Notes under the pieces: model-generated
The model's database searches: none
What the model saw: the letters and a program-made list of their open reading frames with translations, nothing else
What the model was told of the DNA's origin: nothing
Shown here: positions 37,439-42,737 of the stretch, piece by piece
Layout: each line of letters opens with the position of its first letter
Numbering within the stretch: position 1 is the first letter of the stretch
Position numbers and translations under genes: made by a program
Assembly (NCBI GenBank): GCA_964579515.1
Contig: CAZOHA010000001.1
Coordinates: forward strand, 163,484-227,483
Length of the DNA stretch: 64,000 bases
Reading direction: 5' to 3'
DNA from: an uncultured Bacteroides sp.
GTDB taxonomy: Bacteria; Bacteroidota; Bacteroidia; Bacteroidales; GCA-2748055

Positions 37439-37561
37439 TCATTCATACCTCAGTGCATCGGAGGGATTCAGGCGGGCTGCCCTTCTTCCCTGGAAATAGA
37501 CGGTGACCATGGCGAAGATCATCGCAATGAGAGCTGTCAACAGGAAGAAATGTACCCCCAT
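37439..37561 (-). pseudogene. Remnant of the C-terminus of an FtsX/MacB-type ABC permease (last TM helix plus tail)
   Basis: My own translation of the minus strand gives MGVHFFLLTALIAMIFAMVTVYFQGRRAARLNPSDALRYE-stop. The tail ARLNPSDALRYE is the typical FtsX-family C-terminal signature. Only 47 codons are open, and they directly abut the ZIP stop codon in the same frame. Confidence 0.55.
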
Positions 37562-37582: not shown

Positions 37583-38329
37583 CTATCCGTTGGTTATGAA
37601 TTGAAATATCACCATCAGGATGGCCGCCATGGCTACGATCAGGGCCACATTCTCTTTTTTAGCATGGCCGAGTGCATCCGGGAGGATTTCGGAGGCCACC
37701 ATCCATATCATGGCTCCGCCGGCCAGGCCCAGTCCCACGGGCAGGTATTGTTTGAATGAATCGACGAACAGGAAGGCGGGCACGGCAAGGAGCGGTTGGG
37801 GGATGCTGGAGAACACCGCCCAGAGAAACACTTTCCACCAGCGGATCCCCATGGGCAGGAGCACGATGCTGATGGCGATCCCTTCGGGAATGTTATGGAC
37901 GGCAATGGCCACCGAGATGAACACCCCGAACCTGTTACCGTCCCCAAAAGCGACGCCCACCCCGATACCTTCGGCAAAGGAATGCAGGGTCATCACTCCC
38001 ACGATCATCAGGGCCTTCAATGCATCGGCCCCTCTCAGCTCACCGATCTGCACCCCATGATTGTCCGCCAGCTTCAGGTTCACCAGATGGATCAGGATCA
38101 GACCCGCCACGAATCCTGCGGCGGTTTTCCACAGGTGAAACGATAATCCTTCATCTACCAGCATGAAACTGGCCGCCAGCATTAAGCCTGCCGCCAGGGC
38201 ATTGGCATAACCCACATATTTCTTCTTAATACTCCTGACCAGCAGGAAGGGAATGGCACCAAGACCTGTGGCCACAGCAGTGATGCCGGCAAAGAGCAAT
38301 ACGGATAACCAGTGTATTTGAAAGGTCAA
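37583..38329 (-). CDS. ZIP-family divalent metal transporter (ZupT-like)
   Basis: 248 aa, about 8 TM segments. His-containing TM motifs HSFAEGIGVG and HNIPEGIAIS are typical of the ZIP family. It starts 24 nt after the upstream porin-cytochrome stop. Confidence 0.88.
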   Translation of the reverse strand: MTFQIHWLSVLLFAGITAVATGLGAIPFLLVRSIKKKYVGYANALAAGLMLAASFMLVDEGLSFHLWKTAAGFVAGLILIHLVNLKLADNHGVQIGELRGADALKALMIVGVMTLHSFAEGIGVGVAFGDGNRFGVFISVAIAVHNIPEGIAISIVLLPMGIRWWKVFLWAVFSSIPQPLLAVPAFLFVDSFKQYLPVGLGLAGGAMIWMVASEILPDALGHAKKENVALIVAMAAILMVIFQFITNG

Positions 38330-38353
38330 TCAGGTGAAGTATTATGTGAGTTG

Positions 38354-39574
38354 TCAAAAAGCAGATGTAAATCCAAGGGAGAACCTGCTGACCTGGTTTT
38401 CAGGATCCGTGAATATCTGAGTGTACTCTGCCCCCAGCCGGATATTCCTTCGTATCAGATAGCCCACATGAAGAGTGGCAGAGTGATAGTCGGCAGGATT
38501 GAATCCGGAATTCACATAATTGTACAGTCCCACCGCGTACCAGTCGCTCTGATCTCCGTTCGGGCTGTATATCAACTCTCCCAATAAACCGTGTGTATGG
38601 ATATTATTCACGGTGGTCGCGTCTGATGCAGAGAGATACACCTGGTCATCGTTCCTGAACAGATATTGCATATTGATCTCCATCTTGTCGGCGATGCTGA
38701 TGGTAGCATCGGCACCCATATAGGCGGCAGCGTTTGTAATCGTCTGTTCTGCAGGGTGAATCAGATCTTCTCTGCCGTAATATCCCACCACACCGACTCG
38801 CAGATAATCTCCCGCACTCTGGGAAATCCTGCCCAGGAAGCTTTTATGGGGATCTTTGTCAAACAACCTGTTTTCTCCTGCTTCCGACAGTCCGTTCCCA
38901 TTGACCATCATGAACACCAGATCGGTTGAGGTGGGTAATCCATAGGTCACCATCACACCCCTGTCGTACTTCATGGTGATGTCGGAAACGCCTATCTGAC
39001 TTGTATATAGGTGATAATCTTCAAAGGTGAGTCTCAGTTCCCGTTTAAAAAGCGGATCCGACACCTGGAACTGTCCGAGGACCACATCGATACCCGTGTT
39101 GAAGAGCCGGTCGTACATCAGGTAGGCATCTTCCACTCCGGCCACCTCGCCATGCTCGCTCAGATAAAAATAGAAGTAATAGCTGAAATGTTCAGATAGT
39201 TGTCCGCCCGACAGTAGCTTGATCAAATAGGGAGCCGACAGATCCGTTTTACCATTTTCGGCCACTCTGGCCTGGAGATAACCGTCCATCCTGACTGCCA
39301 CGGGAAGGTTTCTGAGCAGGGAAAGCTTCTGGTCGCCGGTCTCCACGAAATATCTCGGAGCCTGGTATTCCGTCAGCTTGAATCCATCTCCGGCATAACT
39401 ATCCCCATAGGGTTTCAGTTTCGGAATGGAGGGAGTATGGCATGTGATGCAGCTGATATTGTATTTCCGTGCAAATGCCGGGATCGCCCGGGCTTTTTTA
39501 TCATTCACCATCAGAAAAATAAAGTGGATGAGAAATACCACCGGGATAATGATCAGAAATCGTTTGATATTCAT
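38354..39574 (-). CDS. Fused monoheme cytochrome c / outer-membrane beta-barrel protein (Cyc2-like porin-cytochrome candidate)
   Basis: Signal peptide followed by a single CXXCH (CITCH, nt 39437-39451) within PAFARKYNISCITCHTPSIPKLKPYGDSYAGDGF. About 350 aa of Tyr/Gly-rich alternating sequence then ends GFTSAF (C-terminal Phe, an OMP-type beta-signal). Confidence 0.6.
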   Translation of the reverse strand: MNIKRFLIIIPVVFLIHFIFLMVNDKKARAIPAFARKYNISCITCHTPSIPKLKPYGDSYAGDGFKLTEYQAPRYFVETGDQKLSLLRNLPVAVRMDGYLQARVAENGKTDLSAPYLIKLLSGGQLSEHFSYYFYFYLSEHGEVAGVEDAYLMYDRLFNTGIDVVLGQFQVSDPLFKRELRLTFEDYHLYTSQIGVSDITMKYDRGVMVTYGLPTSTDLVFMMVNGNGLSEAGENRLFDKDPHKSFLGRISQSAGDYLRVGVVGYYGREDLIHPAEQTITNAAAYMGADATISIADKMEINMQYLFRNDDQVYLSASDATTVNNIHTHGLLGELIYSPNGDQSDWYAVGLYNYVNSGFNPADYHSATLHVGYLIRRNIRLGAEYTQIFTDPENQVSRFSLGFTSAF

Positions 39575-39585
39575 GAGGTTGATCT

Positions 39586-40959
39586 TTAAGGAAGTATTTG
39601 TATATCAATTTCTTGTGTATTGACGATCATGGCCTGATACTCCTCCTCGGGTACCTGGAGATATTCACCCACCGGTTTCACCAGCAGCCGGTAGTTCATG
39701 ACGGCCGAGACGGTCAGCGTTCCTGTGGCGATATCATAAGGGACATCGAATGTATAGGTCTCCACTTTGGTCTCCCGGGGGCCTATCCGGTAGTCCACCC
39801 CCAGCGAATCGGTGTTCCATTGCATGATGGTCATTCGTCCCTGGGGATCGAAAAACGGCATCCGGAAGATGCGGTCACCGATGGGTACTTCCTCCCTGCG
39901 AATTCCTTCGAAGTTTTCGATGCCGAGAGGCACACCGAGGTCCTGGTAGGCAAGCGTATCACTGGCAATCGTATATTCCTCCCCTTTAAATCCTTTCTTA
40001 TCGACCGGAAGGTGATACGTTTTCCCATCTTCATCAACGGCTTCCACATGCAGCCATACGATCCGGTCTTCCACGGAACCGGTGGGAAATTTGTGCCCTG
40101 CTTTCTGATTGAACAAAGTAATCGTAAAAACAACCGGAGTGCCTGGTAATGCTTCCTGCTGGTCGGGTGTGATCCGGATCTCGACCACCCCGTTCAGTTT
40201 CCCGGGATCGTGTGCGCCATTGAACAGATGCATCCGGGCATCCTCGTAGGAAGCCCCCATGATGGCGGTTTTTCCCGGGCCATCGGGCATATGGCAATCC
40301 TGGCAGACCACCCCTTCTTCATAATAGGGACCTTCTTTCAACTCCAGGTGGGTGGATTTCACCCAGGTGCCGAAGGGGCTCTTTTCGTTGTGACAGATCC
40401 CGCAGAATTCAGCGGTCCGGTAAAATGAGGAGGTATCGATCTCATGAACGGGAGAGGATTCTTTTCCTTTCCGGGTGGTGTACTTGGTTTTCCCGACATC
40501 CATTTCATAGTTGTGATTAAATGGTGTGTCGCCCGTGTATCCGGTGATATTGTGGCAGATTTCGCACGACACCGATTCGTTGGCCCTTGGATTTCCGGAA
40601 GGGTCGGGCGGAGGCATATCCCCGGTCAGGTAGGCCATGGGAGTGTGGCACCCGTTGCATCCTTCATGCACACCTTTCATGTTCTCATCATTTTCTGAAT
40701 GGGCCACCGCCAGATCGAAATACTCGATCTCGTCCCAGTGATGATTATAGGCATCGGACATCATTGCCTGGTCCCACTGCTGATAGAACAGTTTATGGCA
40801 CTGGTTGCAATATTCGGGGGTCTGGAAGTCCCCGTACTGGTATTGTTTCTTTTGCTCCTGGTGCAGTCCGAACGACAGGCCTGTGAGAGTGACCCCTCCA
40901 AGGAACAGGTAGCCTGAGATCGTGTGGAAGGTTTTCATACCCATCCCCGGCCAAAACAT
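39586..40959 (-). CDS. Membrane-anchored or secreted pentaheme c-type cytochrome with a heme-free C-terminal domain
   Basis: Five CXXCH motifs (CNQCH, CNGCH, CEICH, CGICH, CQDCH) lie in the first roughly 230 aa after a hydrophobic N-terminal segment (ISGYLFLGGVTLTGLSFGL). The last roughly 200 aa have no Cys or heme motif. Alternative ATG starts at 40944 and 40938. Confidence 0.85.
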   Translation of the reverse strand: MFWPGMGMKTFHTISGYLFLGGVTLTGLSFGLHQEQKKQYQYGDFQTPEYCNQCHKLFYQQWDQAMMSDAYNHHWDEIEYFDLAVAHSENDENMKGVHEGCNGCHTPMAYLTGDMPPPDPSGNPRANESVSCEICHNITGYTGDTPFNHNYEMDVGKTKYTTRKGKESSPVHEIDTSSFYRTAEFCGICHNEKSPFGTWVKSTHLELKEGPYYEEGVVCQDCHMPDGPGKTAIMGASYEDARMHLFNGAHDPGKLNGVVEIRITPDQQEALPGTPVVFTITLFNQKAGHKFPTGSVEDRIVWLHVEAVDEDGKTYHLPVDKKGFKGEEYTIASDTLAYQDLGVPLGIENFEGIRREEVPIGDRIFRMPFFDPQGRMTIMQWNTDSLGVDYRIGPRETKVETYTFDVPYDIATGTLTVSAVMNYRLLVKPVGEYLQVPEEEYQAMIVNTQEIDIQILP

Positions 40960-41174
40960 GTACCTCAGTGGTGCTTATTTGGAATACAAGCAGGTATCAA
41001 CTAAACGAGAAGGCTCTAAAAGCATGACATACAAGGGCATTAGAATCGACAGTCCCTGAATTCGAATTGATTCTAATTAAGAATATGATGGAATGATCTC
41101 TCCATTTGAACCGCTTCCTCCACACCTTGAGTAATTTATTCTACAATCAGGGCTCCGCTGTGAATTTCCGGAAA

Positions 41175-41365
41175 ATGGAGACGTCGACTACTTCCTGGCC
41201 AGACCCGGGGTCACCGAGGGATTTCCATTCAATGATACGGCCCTGGTCTTTAAGGTCATGGGTAAAATGTTTGCCCTGCTGGATCTCTCAGAAAACAGCC
41301 GGGGTATCAGCCTGAAATGTGATCCGCAGATGCTGTGGAGTTGCGTGTGTTTTACGAGGAAGTGA
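41175..41365 (+). pseudogene. Degraded 5' fragment of an mmcQ/yjbR-family gene
   Basis: In the mmcQ frame it reads DYFLARPGVTEGFPFNDTALVFKVMGKMFALLDLSENSRGISLKCDPQM. A 1-nt deletion relative to the intact copy then leads to an early stop at 41363-41365. The only nearby ATG (41175) is out of frame with this reading. Confidence 0.6.
41189..41347 (+). repeat. Direct repeat, left copy (mmcQ 5' region)
   Basis: By my hand alignment, about 159 nt match 42468-42627 with 6 mismatches and 1 single-nt gap. This includes an 86-nt perfectly identical core (GGATTTCCATTC...AGCCGGGG). Confidence 0.9.
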
Positions 41366-41515: not shown

Positions 41516-41818
41516 GTGGAAAAACAGTACATTAAAATAGGCAAAAAGAAGAACAAATTGCTATTGCGCAGATCACTATTCTGGGATGTACCTGCACATG
41601 CCCTGGATTTGGAAAAGAATAAAAGATTGATTCTTGAGAGAGTGTTTTCCAGGGGAAATATCGAGGAATTCATTTCAATAAATCAGCATTATACGAAGGA
41701 GGAGATTCGAGAAACAGTTAAGAGGATTGGCTTTCTGGATAAGAAAACTCTGAATTTTATCTCAAGAACCTATCATATAAATCCTGCCGACTTTAGATGT
41801 TACAAAGAGAATCTGTAG
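41516..41818 (+). CDS. Small protein upstream of the AbiEii toxin; candidate cognate antitoxin (DUF6922-like)
   Basis: 100 aa with a GTG start. Contains SLFWDVPAHALDLEKNKRLILERVFSRG. It overlaps the toxin start by 22 nt. Confidence 0.55.
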   Translation: MEKQYIKIGKKKNKLLLRRSLFWDVPAHALDLEKNKRLILERVFSRGNIEEFISINQHYTKEEIRETVKRIGFLDKKTLNFISRTYHINPADFRCYKENL

Positions 41819-42435
41819 ATAAAAGAGTTCTGGATTCGATCTTTGCCCTTCAGGAGAAGGAGTATCTGAAAGATTTCTATCTGGTAGGTGGAACCGGACT
41901 CGCATTGATTATCGGCCACAGGAAATCAGTGGATATCGACCTTTTCACATCAAAGGATTTTGATGCGGAGCACATTCTCGAAAAGCTTGAATCTGATTTT
42001 GCCTTCCACATGGATTATTTGGGAGGGAATACCATCAAAGGAAGTGTAGCAGGGATTAAAGTGGATCTTCTGGCTCGCAAATATCCCCTTATTGGTGACA
42101 CAATAGAGATGGAGAAATTCCGAATTGCTTCTATGGATGATATAGCTGCGATGAAGATTAATTCTGTGGCCAATGACGGTACCAGAGTCAAAGATTTCAT
42201 CGACCTGTACTTCCTGATTACTGAACGAGGGTTCACTATCGATAGACTACTTGAAAACTTCAAAGCAAAGTATTCCCAAAGGAATGCATTGCATGCATTG
42301 AAAAGCTTGGTTTATTTTGAAGATGTGAACTTAAACGACTGGCCTGTAATGATTAAGAATAAAAGCATAAGCTGGGATGAGATCATGATAGTTTTGAGAA
42401 ATGCCTGTGAAGAGTATATCAGGAAGATAACCTGA
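41797..42435 (+). CDS. Nucleotidyltransferase AbiEii/AbiGii-family toxin (type IV TA / abortive-infection family)
   Basis: 212 aa. FYLVGGTGLALIIGHRKSVDIDLF and DDIAAMKINSVANDGTRVKDFIDLYFL fit the DUF1814/AbiEii pattern. Confidence 0.75.
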   Translation: MLQRESVDKRVLDSIFALQEKEYLKDFYLVGGTGLALIIGHRKSVDIDLFTSKDFDAEHILEKLESDFAFHMDYLGGNTIKGSVAGIKVDLLARKYPLIGDTIEMEKFRIASMDDIAAMKINSVANDGTRVKDFIDLYFLITERGFTIDRLLENFKAKYSQRNALHALKSLVYFEDVNLNDWPVMIKNKSISWDEIMIVLRNACEEYIRKIT

Positions 42436-42443
42436 CTGAATCC

Positions 42444-42737
42444 ATGAACATCGAAGAGATCCGCGAATACTGCCTGGCCAGGCCCGGAGTCACCGAAGGA
42501 TTTCCATTCAATGATACGGCCCTGGTCTTTAAGGTCATGGGTAAAATGTTTGCCCTGCTGGATCTCTCAGAAAACAGCCGGGGAATCAGCCTGAAATGTG
42601 ATCCGCAGATGGCTGTGGAGATGCGTGACCGATACCCGGAGGTGACACCGGCCTACCACTTTAACAAGAAGCACTGGAACACGGTGGATCCCAGCGGCAG
42701 CCTGCCCGAAAAACTTTTCCTGGAGCTCATCACATGA
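42444..42737 (+). CDS. MmcQ/YjbR-family DNA-binding protein
   Basis: MNIEEIREYCLARPGVTEGFPFNDTALVFKVMGKMFALL...YHFNKKHWNTV is typical of the YjbR fold. At 97 aa it may be slightly short at the C-terminus. Confidence 0.85.
   Translation: MNIEEIREYCLARPGVTEGFPFNDTALVFKVMGKMFALLDLSENSRGISLKCDPQMAVEMRDRYPEVTPAYHFNKKHWNTVDPSGSLPEKLFLELIT
42468..42627 (+). repeat. Direct repeat, right copy (inside intact mmcQ)
   Basis: Partner of 41189-41347; see that entry. Confidence 0.9.

Follow-up and report, generated by a model that had tools for sequence, protein, structure and literature searches.

Across Bacteroidales/Marinilabiliales and Ignavibacteriota, a gene for a Cyc2-type cytochrome-porin is directly preceded by a gene for a pentaheme cytochrome, and the same pair lies in the window analysed here, a 64,000-nt stretch of DNA from an uncultured Bacteroides sp. 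We give a probability of roughly 0.55 to the reading that the two products form an electron module of outer membrane and periplasm acting on soluble iron. An earlier note on this DNA had described the pair together with a third gene for a ZIP importer; every sequence feature that it named for the locus was found where it had placed it. As described there, the three genes share one strand (minus), with intergenic gaps of 11 nt (gene 1 to gene 2) and 24 nt (gene 2 to gene 3). Gene 1 (39586..40938; the ORF could reach 40959) encodes the pentaheme c-type cytochrome, gene 2 (38354..39574; 406 aa) the predicted Cyc2-family fused monoheme cytochrome and 16-strand outer-membrane porin, and gene 3 (37583..38329; 248 aa, TTG start) a ZIP-family divalent-cation transporter. 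Homology marks genes 1 and 2 as real genes rather than chance ORFs, since homologs number at least 4030 for gene 2 and at least 2693 for gene 1. In the database, the copy of the gene 1 protein (P0121, 450 aa) begins at the third ATG, and the real start is therefore probably 40938 rather than 40959, from which the product would count 457 aa.

Conservation of the pair

How stable is this arrangement? In 78 of 80 genome loci (81 with the window counted), the gene immediately upstream of the barrel gene is the pentaheme gene; contig ends truncate the remaining two. This supports the earlier pairing of the pentaheme cytochrome with the cytochrome-porin, the two genes being strictly conserved partners. 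The gap between the two genes is usually 8–18 nt, and identity across the loci ranges from 46 to 69% for the barrel and from 57 to 80% for the pentaheme protein. The pair is usually bicistronic, the next gene often lying on the opposite strand, and no third conserved gene was found beside it in the 80 loci: the most frequent neighbour family is present in just 5 of them, with 170 Pfam families downstream and 183 upstream. Judged by gene order, the conserved unit is thus a two-gene operon, not a set of three genes. No pentaheme partner was found beside the more distant Cyc2-like relatives checked.

Cyc2 homologs in these lineages are not new, and genome bins of Bacteroidetes and Ignavibacteria carrying them already feature in surveys (PMC6344600; PMC8478452). 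For the pairing of a Cyc2-type porin with a pentaheme gene, we found no description in the literature searched. The host lineages of the pair are organoheterotrophs, including Fe(III) reducers (Melioribacter), and are not known iron oxidizers, which weighs against our main reading. Cultured carriers include Melioribacter roseus, Marinilabilia salmonicolor and Tangfeifania diversioriginum.

A Cyc2-type cytochrome-porin

The assignment of gene 2 to the Cyc2-type fused monoheme cytochrome-porins, first made in the earlier note, has gained support from both the family motifs (PMC8406198) and a 16-strand, OprO/OprP-like model. Residues 1–30 (39485..39574, minus strand) appear on sequence inspection to be a signal peptide, with predicted cleavage after A-R-A leaving the mature N-terminus IPAFARKY; an AXA-type site directly precedes the invariant IPAFARKY in 37/37 aligned homologs. 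The heme-binding cassette (39416..39487, minus strand) follows the order A30-I-P-A-F-A-R-K-Y38, N-I-S, C42-I-T-C-H46, T-P-S-I, P51-K-L53, which fits the Cyc2 consensus AXPXFAR[Q/K][T/Y] ... CXXCH ... PXL (PMC8406198). Its CITCH (nt 39437-39451) is, as had been noted, the single CXXCH of the protein and is invariant in the 37 homologs of alignment A1; I31, P32, F34–Y38, C42, C45, H46, P51 and L53 are the invariant residues of this region. The C-terminus reads GFTSAF.

Searches with gene 2 against Pfam, NCBIfam and PDB sequences returned no match. The barrel that had been predicted appears in the AF2 model, with ~16 transmembrane strands (pLDDT 70, pTM 0.69); the heme domains in the models of both genes 1 and 2 are of low confidence (pLDDT <50). 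The best PDB matches of the gene 2 model in Foldseek are VhChiP, OprO (4RJW) and OprP (2O4V), at E ~1e-12; the latter two have also been reported as templates for Cyc2 (Keffer et al. 2021, PMC8406198). HHalign aligned the gene 2 family over its full length with a proteobacterial Cyc2-like family from Gallionellaceae and Acidiferrobacterales genome bins at 100% probability (E 1e-72, 375 columns). In sequence and in predicted fold, gene 2 agrees with the Cyc2 family on every published criterion, the comparison running through published motifs, template folds and the Cyc2-like genome-bin family.

The described examples are Cyc2 of Acidithiobacillus ferrooxidans, Cyt572 of Leptospirillum and Cyc2PV-1 of Mariprofundus (PMC8406198). 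With them gene 2 has in common a signal peptide, a single N-terminal CXXCH flanked by AXPXFAR[Q/K][T/Y] and PXL, a length of ~400 aa and, in its model, a 16-strand barrel with OprO/OprP neighbours. The canonical cyc2 gene stands alone or is followed by cyc1/c4-type cytochromes, whereas that of the FCB-group subfamily described here, whose hosts are organoheterotrophs, is preceded by a c552-like pentaheme gene. The most conserved stretch of the barrel, G167-QFQVSDPLFKRELRLTFEDY187 (39014..39076, minus strand), in which nearly every residue is invariant (alignment A1), lies in the long loop between strands 5 and 6, in the position of the porin constriction loop L3. Going by the model, in which residues 177-191 have pLDDT <50, it may be the counterpart of that loop; it is partly retained in distant relatives (GQFQLSDLMFPRETRLTVQDF in P0399).

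A pentaheme cytochrome related to c552 and MccSep

Gene 1 contains the five CXXCH motifs reported for it (CNQCH, CNGCH, CEICH, CGICH and CQDCH). Their ten cysteines are all the cysteines of the protein, and the motifs are invariant in 35 homologs (alignment A2). Five more histidines, H66, H165, H237, H243 and H282, are invariant as well; they could act as distal heme ligands, and all five hemes are probably bis-His. The hydrophobic N-terminus had been taken for an anchor, a view we do not share: a cleavable signal peptide is more likely, with sites such as ITA/Q and STA/A in the homologs (A2). Both c552 and MccSep, its relatives, are soluble proteins of the periplasm, and by this analogy the gene 1 product is probably soluble and periplasmic, too.

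The signal peptide is followed by an alpha-helical five-heme domain and a C-terminal Ig-like beta-sandwich of ~200 aa, modelled at pLDDT 80-97. Pfam gave partial matches to c554 and NapC/NirT. A profile of gene 1 aligned in three collinear stretches with c552 of Thermochromatium tepidum (PDB 5ZE8; E 1.3e-8), and this structure is also the only full-length PDB match of the gene 1 model in Foldseek (E 1.5e-10 over 448 columns). Like gene 1, c552 has five CXXCH in the same order and then a beta-sandwich, but identity between the two is only ~19%. Together, profile and model place gene 1 in a c552/MccSep-like superfamily, as a distant homolog of c552 (5ZE8) and MccSep/ExtKL.

Substrate and direction of electron flow

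What is the physiological role of the pair? From the gene identities, motifs, folds and conservation, we infer localisation, physical interaction, substrate and direction along the following lines. Gene 2 would be an outer-membrane Cyc2-family porin with one c-type heme bound in its N-terminal ~45 residues, and gene 1 a secreted pentaheme protein with a five-heme cap and an Ig-like stem in the c552/MccSep fold. Dissolved iron, or less probably another small redox-active solute, would enter the pore and swap an electron with the porin heme, and the pentaheme protein would pass electrons between this heme and a periplasmic or inner-membrane redox pool. MtrAB(C), MtoAB and PioAB also set a barrel and a periplasmic multiheme cytochrome side by side and take electrons across the outer membrane, with a 26-strand barrel sheathing a decaheme wire (PMC8406198). 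In contrast, the barrel described here, with 16 predicted strands, would be too narrow to sheathe its partner and has a heme of its own, while the partner has five hemes and an Ig-like domain.

For such a module, the oxidation of Fe(II), either to detoxify it or to gain supplementary energy, is the role that we tentatively place first, at somewhat less than even odds. The Cyc2 members characterised so far are Fe(II) oxidases, the only activity shown for the family (PMC8406198). A possible role is that of an electron sink, with soluble Fe(III), humics or shuttles reduced outwards; action on another substrate is unlikely, and assimilatory reduction feeding importers improbable. The carriers of the canonical Cyc2 pathway are mono- or diheme c4-type proteins, and a bis-His multiheme partner is unusual for it; the direction known from the family may therefore not hold here.

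Electrons could conceivably run outwards, as in a 'Cyc2 in reverse', with the pentaheme protein feeding the porin heme. This heme might then reduce small oxidants in the pore, such as soluble Fe(III) chelates or humic quinones, which would provide these facultative anaerobes with an electron sink. Five bis-His hemes, as the five extra invariant histidines of gene 1 would allow, tend to be of low potential, and its structural relative 5ZE8 is reportedly a low-potential cytochrome. However, the bis-His decahemes MtoA and PioA function in Fe(II) oxidation, so that the ligand type does not fix the direction. Among the carriers of the pair are Melioribacter, which reduces Fe(III), and Marinilabiliales that ferment; He et al. 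(PMC6344600) also mention Cyc2 homologs in taxa that reduce Fe(III). Against outward flow, all characterised Cyc2 proteins oxidise Fe(II), and a single heme inside so narrow a pore, of 16 strands, is out of reach of minerals and accessible to small chelates only (Keffer, PMC8406198).

The earlier note had favoured a reductive uptake module, in which Fe(III) or another metal would be reduced at the porin heme and the divalent ion imported by the ZIP protein, or by NRAMP elsewhere; we regard this as improbable. Of its label for gene 3, a ZupT-like ZIP importer, the ZIP part stands: the protein passes Pfam ZIP PF02535 (51.3 bits, cut-off 35.1) and keeps the HNxPEG- and HSFAEG-type motifs of ZIP/ZupT importers. 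ZupT does not, the equivalog model scoring 73 bits against a cut-off of 252. In the window, the ZIP gene follows the pair by 24 nt on the same strand, and no terminator-like site was found between genes 1, 2 and the ZIP gene, a weak one occurring after the ZIP stop (37572-37555); in this genome, the ZIP gene is probably co-transcribed with the pair. Unrelated importer families also occur downstream in other lineages, namely ZIP in L020 and L059 and a co-oriented NRAMP in L013 (NRAMP-Usp), and VIT1 lies downstream of the pair in three loci. With the window counted, about 7 of 81 loci, not all of them unrelated, have a gene of these three families downstream. Such genes make up ~5 of the 133 in first or second place after the pair, against a genome-wide frequency roughly estimated near 0.1%. 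Upstream, ferritin-like genes appear twice among the neighbours, and none of the recurring families is ZIP, NRAMP or VIT1. This suggests an iron theme, not obligate coupling.

As to the ZIP gene, which the earlier note had counted into the operon, the survey does not support a place in the conserved module: a co-oriented ZIP gene occurs in none of the 80 other loci. The two other ZIP genes are convergent and therefore not co-transcribed with the pair, and in ~74 of 81 loci no ZIP, NRAMP or VIT1 gene lies close to the pair. With the linkage not conserved, the reductive-uptake idea therefore leans on a weak recurring iron-transport theme. Moreover, the associated VIT1 is an exporter/sequestration family, pointing to iron excess rather than acquisition, and a six-heme system would be costly for acquiring iron under iron limitation. 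The GC3 of the ZIP gene in the window is host-like (0.69) compared to 0.58-0.63 in the cytochrome genes, consistent with secondary juxtaposition. The ZIP gene is best read as a lineage-specific juxtaposition, sharing an iron- or metal-responsive neighbourhood with the pair rather than being its obligatory mechanistic partner.

Improbable, too, is a substrate other than iron, on the model of the Geobacter porin ExtI and the pentaheme polysulfide reductase ExtKL/MccSep. The pair would then handle small oxidants entering through the pore, for example species of sulfur, selenium or tellurium. MccSep/ExtKL has the same periplasmic five-heme cap and Ig-like stem and is clustered with the outer-membrane porin-like extI (extHIJKL...) (bioRxiv 10.1101/2025.11.18.688581; PMC5877670), and ExtKL is the best NCBIfam match of gene 1 (E 2.7e-13), albeit at 49 bits against a cut-off of 250. 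MccSep, however, has a Sec/Cys active site and a heme-ligating Cys; gene 1 has no Cys outside CXXCH and no in-frame TGA, and therefore lacks both the heme-ligating Cys239 and Sec/Cys325. Its five extra invariant histidines suggest that no catalytic heme is left open, and ExtI of Geobacter ExtHIJKL is a ~21-strand porin without heme, whereas gene 2, with 16 strands and its own heme, bears the Cyc2 iron-oxidase signature absent from ExtI.

Composition, flanks and a candidate operator

The barrel gene is indeed lower in GC than its surroundings, as spot counts had indicated (0.487 overall; GC3 0.58 versus 0.68-0.74 in flanking host genes), and gene 1 is intermediate (GC3 0.63). Downstream, the supposed FtsX tail (37439..37561, minus strand) holds up in part: this 40-aa ORF matches FtsX-type permeases, but weakly and at their extreme C-termini only (NCBIfam C-terminal model ends, E 1e-4 to 2e-3), as the leftover 40-residue end of an FtsX/LolC/ADOP-type permease would; the upstream part of such a gene was not found. 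On the other side, where an mmcQ fragment had been noted, 41185-41365 repeats the 5′ part of yjbR (42464-42645) in direct orientation at 96% identity.

Between this repeat and gene 1, 121-140 nt upstream of the gene 1 start, lies a candidate operator, the 16/20 palindrome AATTAGAATCAATTCGAATT (41059..41078, minus strand). It is a degenerate likeness of ATTTA-N9-TAAAT, which is enriched upstream of the pair elsewhere: exact copies number 14 in 21.5 kb upstream of pentaheme genes, 7 in ~86 kb of other intergenic DNA and 0.6 in shuffled sequences.

Conservation of the gene pair

What is conserved around the barrel gene of the window? Our survey shows that the Cyc2-type proteins of the FCB group (Bacteroidota and Ignavibacteriota carriers) form a distinct subfamily, each encoded directly after a c552/MccSep-like pentaheme gene. 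A one-genome-per-species scan yielded 584 confirmed relatives of the barrel gene (gene 2), and among the best 80 of these 584 loci a homolog of the pentaheme cytochrome gene (gene 1) sits immediately upstream on the same strand in 78, the remaining two starting at a contig end. Within the pair the gap is usually 8–18 nt, and the pentaheme protein is the better conserved partner (57–80% identity, versus 46–69% for the barrel).

Carriers in the Bacteroidales/Marinilabiliales comprise Mariniphaga, Tangfeifania diversioriginum DSM 27063, Marinilabilia salmonicolor, Saccharicrinis, Sunxiuqinia, Salinivirga and Prolixibacteraceae, with further pairs in Lentimicrobiaceae, Rikenellaceae and Kapabacteria, and, within the Ignavibacteriota, in Melioribacter and Rosettibacter primus. 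Typical FCB-type pairs were also seen in genome bins titled 'uncultured Hyphomicrobiales' (loci L040, L056, L059, L060 and L061); these bins are probably mislabelled or chimeric rather than alphaproteobacterial carriers.

The linkage of cytochrome and porin, which the earlier note had suggested surveying, thus recurs well outside the window, and the conserved unit is this pair. That note had also placed a ZIP transporter gene (gene 3) in the operon. Across the 80 loci examined, no co-oriented ZIP gene accompanies the pair outside the window, and two loci carry a convergent one just downstream (L020, 3614–4423; L059, 2006–2821). More generally, when the two genes on each side of the pair were clustered and assigned to Pfam families across the 80 loci, no third gene proved to be conserved. 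The most frequent cluster among the neighbours, ResB/CcsA (cytochrome maturation), reaches 5 of 80 loci; downstream neighbours are scattered over 170 families with at most five proteins each and upstream neighbours over 183 with at most four, and the gene past the barrel frequently lies on the opposite strand.

Unlike the FCB-group proteins, the distant Cyc2-like relatives that we checked are not preceded by a pentaheme gene, so this partner marks the FCB subfamily. Four of them (P0286, P0300, P0400 and P0413) stand alone, and behind P0354 (L090, 2739–5688) lie, in the same orientation, a 418-aa protein that has no Pfam match and then a monoheme cytochrome c, an arrangement that differs from that of the FCB subfamily.

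The barrel protein resembles Cyc2

The Cyc2 family has been defined by six features: a signal peptide, exactly one CXXCH, an AXPXFAR[Q/K][T/Y] motif ahead of it, PXL four residues past it, a minimum length of 365 aa, and a porin of 16 strands for which OprO/OprP served as templates (Keffer et al. 2021, PMC8406198). Judged by these published motif, length and fold criteria, all six of which it displays, gene 2 belongs to the Cyc2-type fused cytochrome-porins, in keeping with the architecture proposed in the earlier note. The 406-aa product, encoded on the minus strand at 38354–39574, reads ARA/IPAFARKY-NIS-CITCH-TPSI-PKL. By inspection, a hydrophobic N-terminus ends in an A-X-A site that abuts IPAFARKY, invariant in 37 homologs. 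The only CXXCH, already noted before (nt 39437–39451), is the N-terminal C42-I-T-C-H46, and C42, C45 and H46 proved invariant in the same 37 homologs; the GFTSAF C-terminus is likewise present. The upstream motif is A30-I-P-A-F-A-R-K-Y38, with three residues between Y38 and C42, as in proteobacterial relatives, versus '5 amino acids upstream' in the text of PMC8406198. Past the heme site, H46-T-P-S-I-P51-K-L53 supplies an invariant P51 and L53. The AlphaFold2 model (pLDDT 70, pTM 0.69) has about 16 transmembrane strands, in line with the 16–18-strand barrel for which the earlier note had proposed to test. Its best Foldseek matches in the PDB are VhChiP, OprO (4RJW) and OprP (2O4V) at E values of about 1e-12 (4RJW and 2O4V, ~3e-12), and OprO and OprP are the templates reported for Cyc2 (PMC8406198).

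Searches with the single sequence and with a profile against Pfam, NCBIfam and PDB sequences returned nothing useful, so that the Pfam match sought for gene 2 did not materialize. At least 4030 homologs exist, every one of them hypothetical or without a name, and 2090 relatives emerged at E ≤ 1e-3 when a profile was run against 1.84 billion cluster representatives. Divergent members keep the heme cassette, for example as AIPVFARQYNLTCITCH in a gammaproteobacterial protein. An alignment of the gene 2 family with a proteobacterial Cyc2-like family of unnamed proteins (HHalign) gave 100% probability and an E value of 1e-72 over 375 columns; members of the latter occur in Gallionellaceae and Acidiferrobacterales genome bins, and these protein matches hint at a link between the gene 2 family and verified Cyc2.

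The most conserved segment of the barrel, GQFQVSDPLFKRELRLTFEDY (residues 167–187; 39014–39076 in the window), falls into a long loop that is modelled with low confidence, at the site of the porin constriction loop; distant relatives of the Cyc2 type retain it in part. It may line the pore or serve as a docking site for the heme domain.

The pentaheme partner

Gene 1 (39586–40959, minus strand; its database copy P0121, of 450 aa, begins at the ATG at 40938) has the five CXXCH motifs described earlier, which hold all ten of its cysteines. The five motifs and five further histidines are invariant among 35 homologs, and these extra histidines would probably suffice for five bis-His hemes. The C-terminal 200 residues are confidently modelled as a beta-sandwich. 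Among PDB entries, only 5ZE8, the c552 pentaheme cytochrome from Thermochromatium tepidum, is a full-length relative; it was detected by phmmer (3e-4), by a profile in three collinear stretches (1.3e-8) and by Foldseek over 448 columns (1.5e-10). The order of five CXXCH motifs followed by an Ig-like beta-sandwich, together with this similarity, is that of the c552 type, and from its sequence and predicted fold gene 1 is a c552/MccSep-like pentaheme cytochrome.

MccSep, also known as ExtKL, was recently demonstrated to be a periplasmic polysulfide reductase, built from a five-heme cap and an Ig-like stem, with a heme-ligating cysteine and a catalytic selenocysteine (bioRxiv 10.1101/2025.11.18.688581; PMC5877670). 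ExtKL (NF040886) is the best NCBIfam match of gene 1, at 49.3 bits and hence below the cut-off of 250. No cysteine outside the CXXCH motifs and no in-frame TGA was found in gene 1; with neither an extra cysteine nor a selenocysteine, it lacks the MccSep active site. The two thus share a fold but not an active site, and we rejected MccSep as the identity of gene 1, since both the catalytic Sec/Cys residue and the cysteine ligand to heme 2 are absent. The product rather looks like an electron carrier.

A membrane quinol dehydrogenase of the NapC/NirT/NrfH type was rejected as well, its family models matching only partially and far under their cut-offs (TIGR03153, 32 versus 134; TIGR02161, 13.6 versus 310) and the Pfam PF03264 match being limited to residues 181–233. 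N-termini of the homologs resemble signal peptides. Where the earlier note had read a hydrophobic anchor at the N-terminus of gene 1, the classical signal-peptidase sites in these homologs make a signal peptide more likely.

Metal-related neighbours

Gene 3 (37583–38329, minus strand) had been called a ZupT-like ZIP importer. The ZIP assignment stands, with Pfam PF02535 scoring 51.3 bits against a gathering score of 35.1; the ZupT label does not, as the match stays under the ZupT equivalog cut-off. Beyond the window, genes of three unrelated transporter families, NRAMP-Usp, ZIP and VIT1, are repeatedly found close downstream of the pair, in different lineages. Besides the two convergent ZIP genes, we found a co-oriented NRAMP-Usp gene at L013 (7447–9309) and VIT1 genes at three related loci (L024, 7450–8328; L019, 3022–3900; L017, 8587–9465). 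The barrels of the transporter-adjoining loci are only 50–60% identical to one another, so several of these juxtapositions are independent. Together, ZIP, NRAMP and VIT1 make up about 5 of 133 downstream neighbours, well over the roughly 0.1% that we estimate genome-wide. Upstream, ResB/CcsA cytochrome c maturation genes recur, and two loci have a ferritin-like gene. We read the recurring transporters as an iron or metal theme, perhaps reflecting shared regulation, which does not imply an obligatory partnership.

Direction of electron flow

Two secreted c-type cytochromes, one of them fused to an outer-membrane porin, are shown here to be encoded as a strictly conserved pair. What might they do? 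The porin heme would exchange electrons with a small solute inside the pore, most likely dissolved iron, and the pentaheme protein would connect this heme to a periplasmic or inner-membrane redox pool. A sheathed wire of the Mtr/Mto/Pio type was rejected: with 16 strands rather than ~26 and a five-heme rather than a decaheme partner (DmsE family model, 22.7 versus a cut-off of 192), the pair is not an Mtr-type complex.

By analogy with the Cyc2 family, whose precedent is Fe(II) oxidation, and given a narrow pore that suits Fe2+, inward flow with Fe(II) as the donor may be the role of the pair; we put this at about 40%. Set against it are a multiheme partner that is probably bis-His and the carriers themselves, which are fermenters and Fe(III) reducers with no known iron oxidizers among them; these points favour outward flow, and dissimilatory reduction by the pair is possible, if somewhat less likely than oxidation. 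That the pair acts on another substrate altogether seems doubtful. Assimilatory reduction is improbable. The same small chance attaches to the fuller scheme anticipated by the earlier note, in which a minimal six-heme, two-protein module of heterotrophic Bacteroidota and Ignavibacteriota would reduce oxidised iron or another metal in the outer-membrane pore and pass the divalent ion to the periplasm for ZIP or NRAMP uptake: importers do occur next to the pair, in a transporter set that mixes them with an exporter/sequestration family, and the ZIP gene of the window has a host-like codon composition, unlike both cytochrome genes. If true, the pair would provide a route for reductive metal uptake across a Gram-negative outer membrane, derived from a Cyc2 'iron oxidase' working in reverse.

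Tools such as FeGenie use Cyc2 as the marker of iron oxidation by microbes, and matches in Bacteroidota and Ignavibacteria bins are routinely taken as 'iron oxidation potential'. Should the pair run outward or serve iron homeostasis, many metagenomic 'iron oxidizer' calls would need re-reading. Surveys have previously recorded Cyc2 homologs in genome bins of Bacteroidetes and Ignavibacteria (PMC8478452, PMC6344600); one of them, based on FeGenie, reports Cyc2, with cluster 3 prevailing in the communities studied, as well as genes for iron oxidation in bins of Ignavibacteriales (PMC8478452). In the open-access literature searched, we found no report of a pentaheme partner for the canonical Cyc2 pathway and no description of an obligate pairing of Cyc2 with a c552-like pentaheme cytochrome, absence there being no proof. 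A multi-omics paper on Melioribacter does not mention porin or multiheme proteins, and other surveys of EET describe OmbB/MtrB-type complexes, not the pair. The pairing also offers a candidate role for c552-type cytochromes, which otherwise lack an assigned function. As just two genes are involved and cultured carriers exist (Melioribacter, Rosettibacter, Marinilabilia salmonicolor and Tangfeifania diversioriginum), the role of Cyc2 homologs in non-iron-oxidizers is directly testable.

The locus and its upstream DNA

In the window, ORF calls reproduced the three same-strand genes at the coordinates first assigned to them, with gaps of 11 nt between genes 1 and 2 and 24 nt between genes 2 and 3. 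Co-transcription is plausible: we found no terminator-like site between the three genes, and a weak one past the end of the ZIP gene. A sigma-70 promoter scan was uninformative (6 sites versus 7.1 expected). The lower GC content suspected for the barrel gene was confirmed (GC 0.487; GC3 0.58, against 0.68–0.74 in flanking host genes), with GC3 values of 0.63 for gene 1 and 0.69 for the ZIP gene. Both gene remnants thought to flank the module, an FtsX tail and a yjbR (mmcQ) fragment, are real. The former, an FtsX/LolC/ADOP permease remnant (37439–37561, minus strand), is an isolated 40-aa ORF similar to the last residues only; as the remainder of the gene is absent, a scar of deletion or rearrangement adjoins the ZIP-cytochrome block, whose position between remnants fits a rearranged region.

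Within the 300 nt that precede each pentaheme gene (21.5 kb in all), the palindrome ATTTA-N9-TAAAT occurs 14 times, compared with 7 times in ~86 kb of intergenic DNA elsewhere in these loci, an enrichment of about 8-fold. It is found at L016, L017, L021, L022, L024, L025, L029, L032, L034, L036, L037, L045, L047 and L077, has the extended form ATTTAGA-N5-ATAAAT, and is a candidate operator for a regulator. The only version in the window is a degenerate one, palindromic at 16 of 20 positions, AATTAGAATCAATTCGAATT, at 41059–41078.

Farther upstream of the operon, two directly repeated copies of the 5′ portion of yjbR, ~180 nt long (41185–41365 and 42464–42645), flank a low-GC block (41516–42435; 36–40% GC, GC3 0.43–0.45). 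The copies are 96% identical over 148 nt and 74% identical over the next 34 nt. The block encodes a DUF6922 protein and an AbiEii nucleotidyltransferase toxin, and has the appearance of a toxin-antitoxin island whose insertion duplicated part of the target gene, yjbR.
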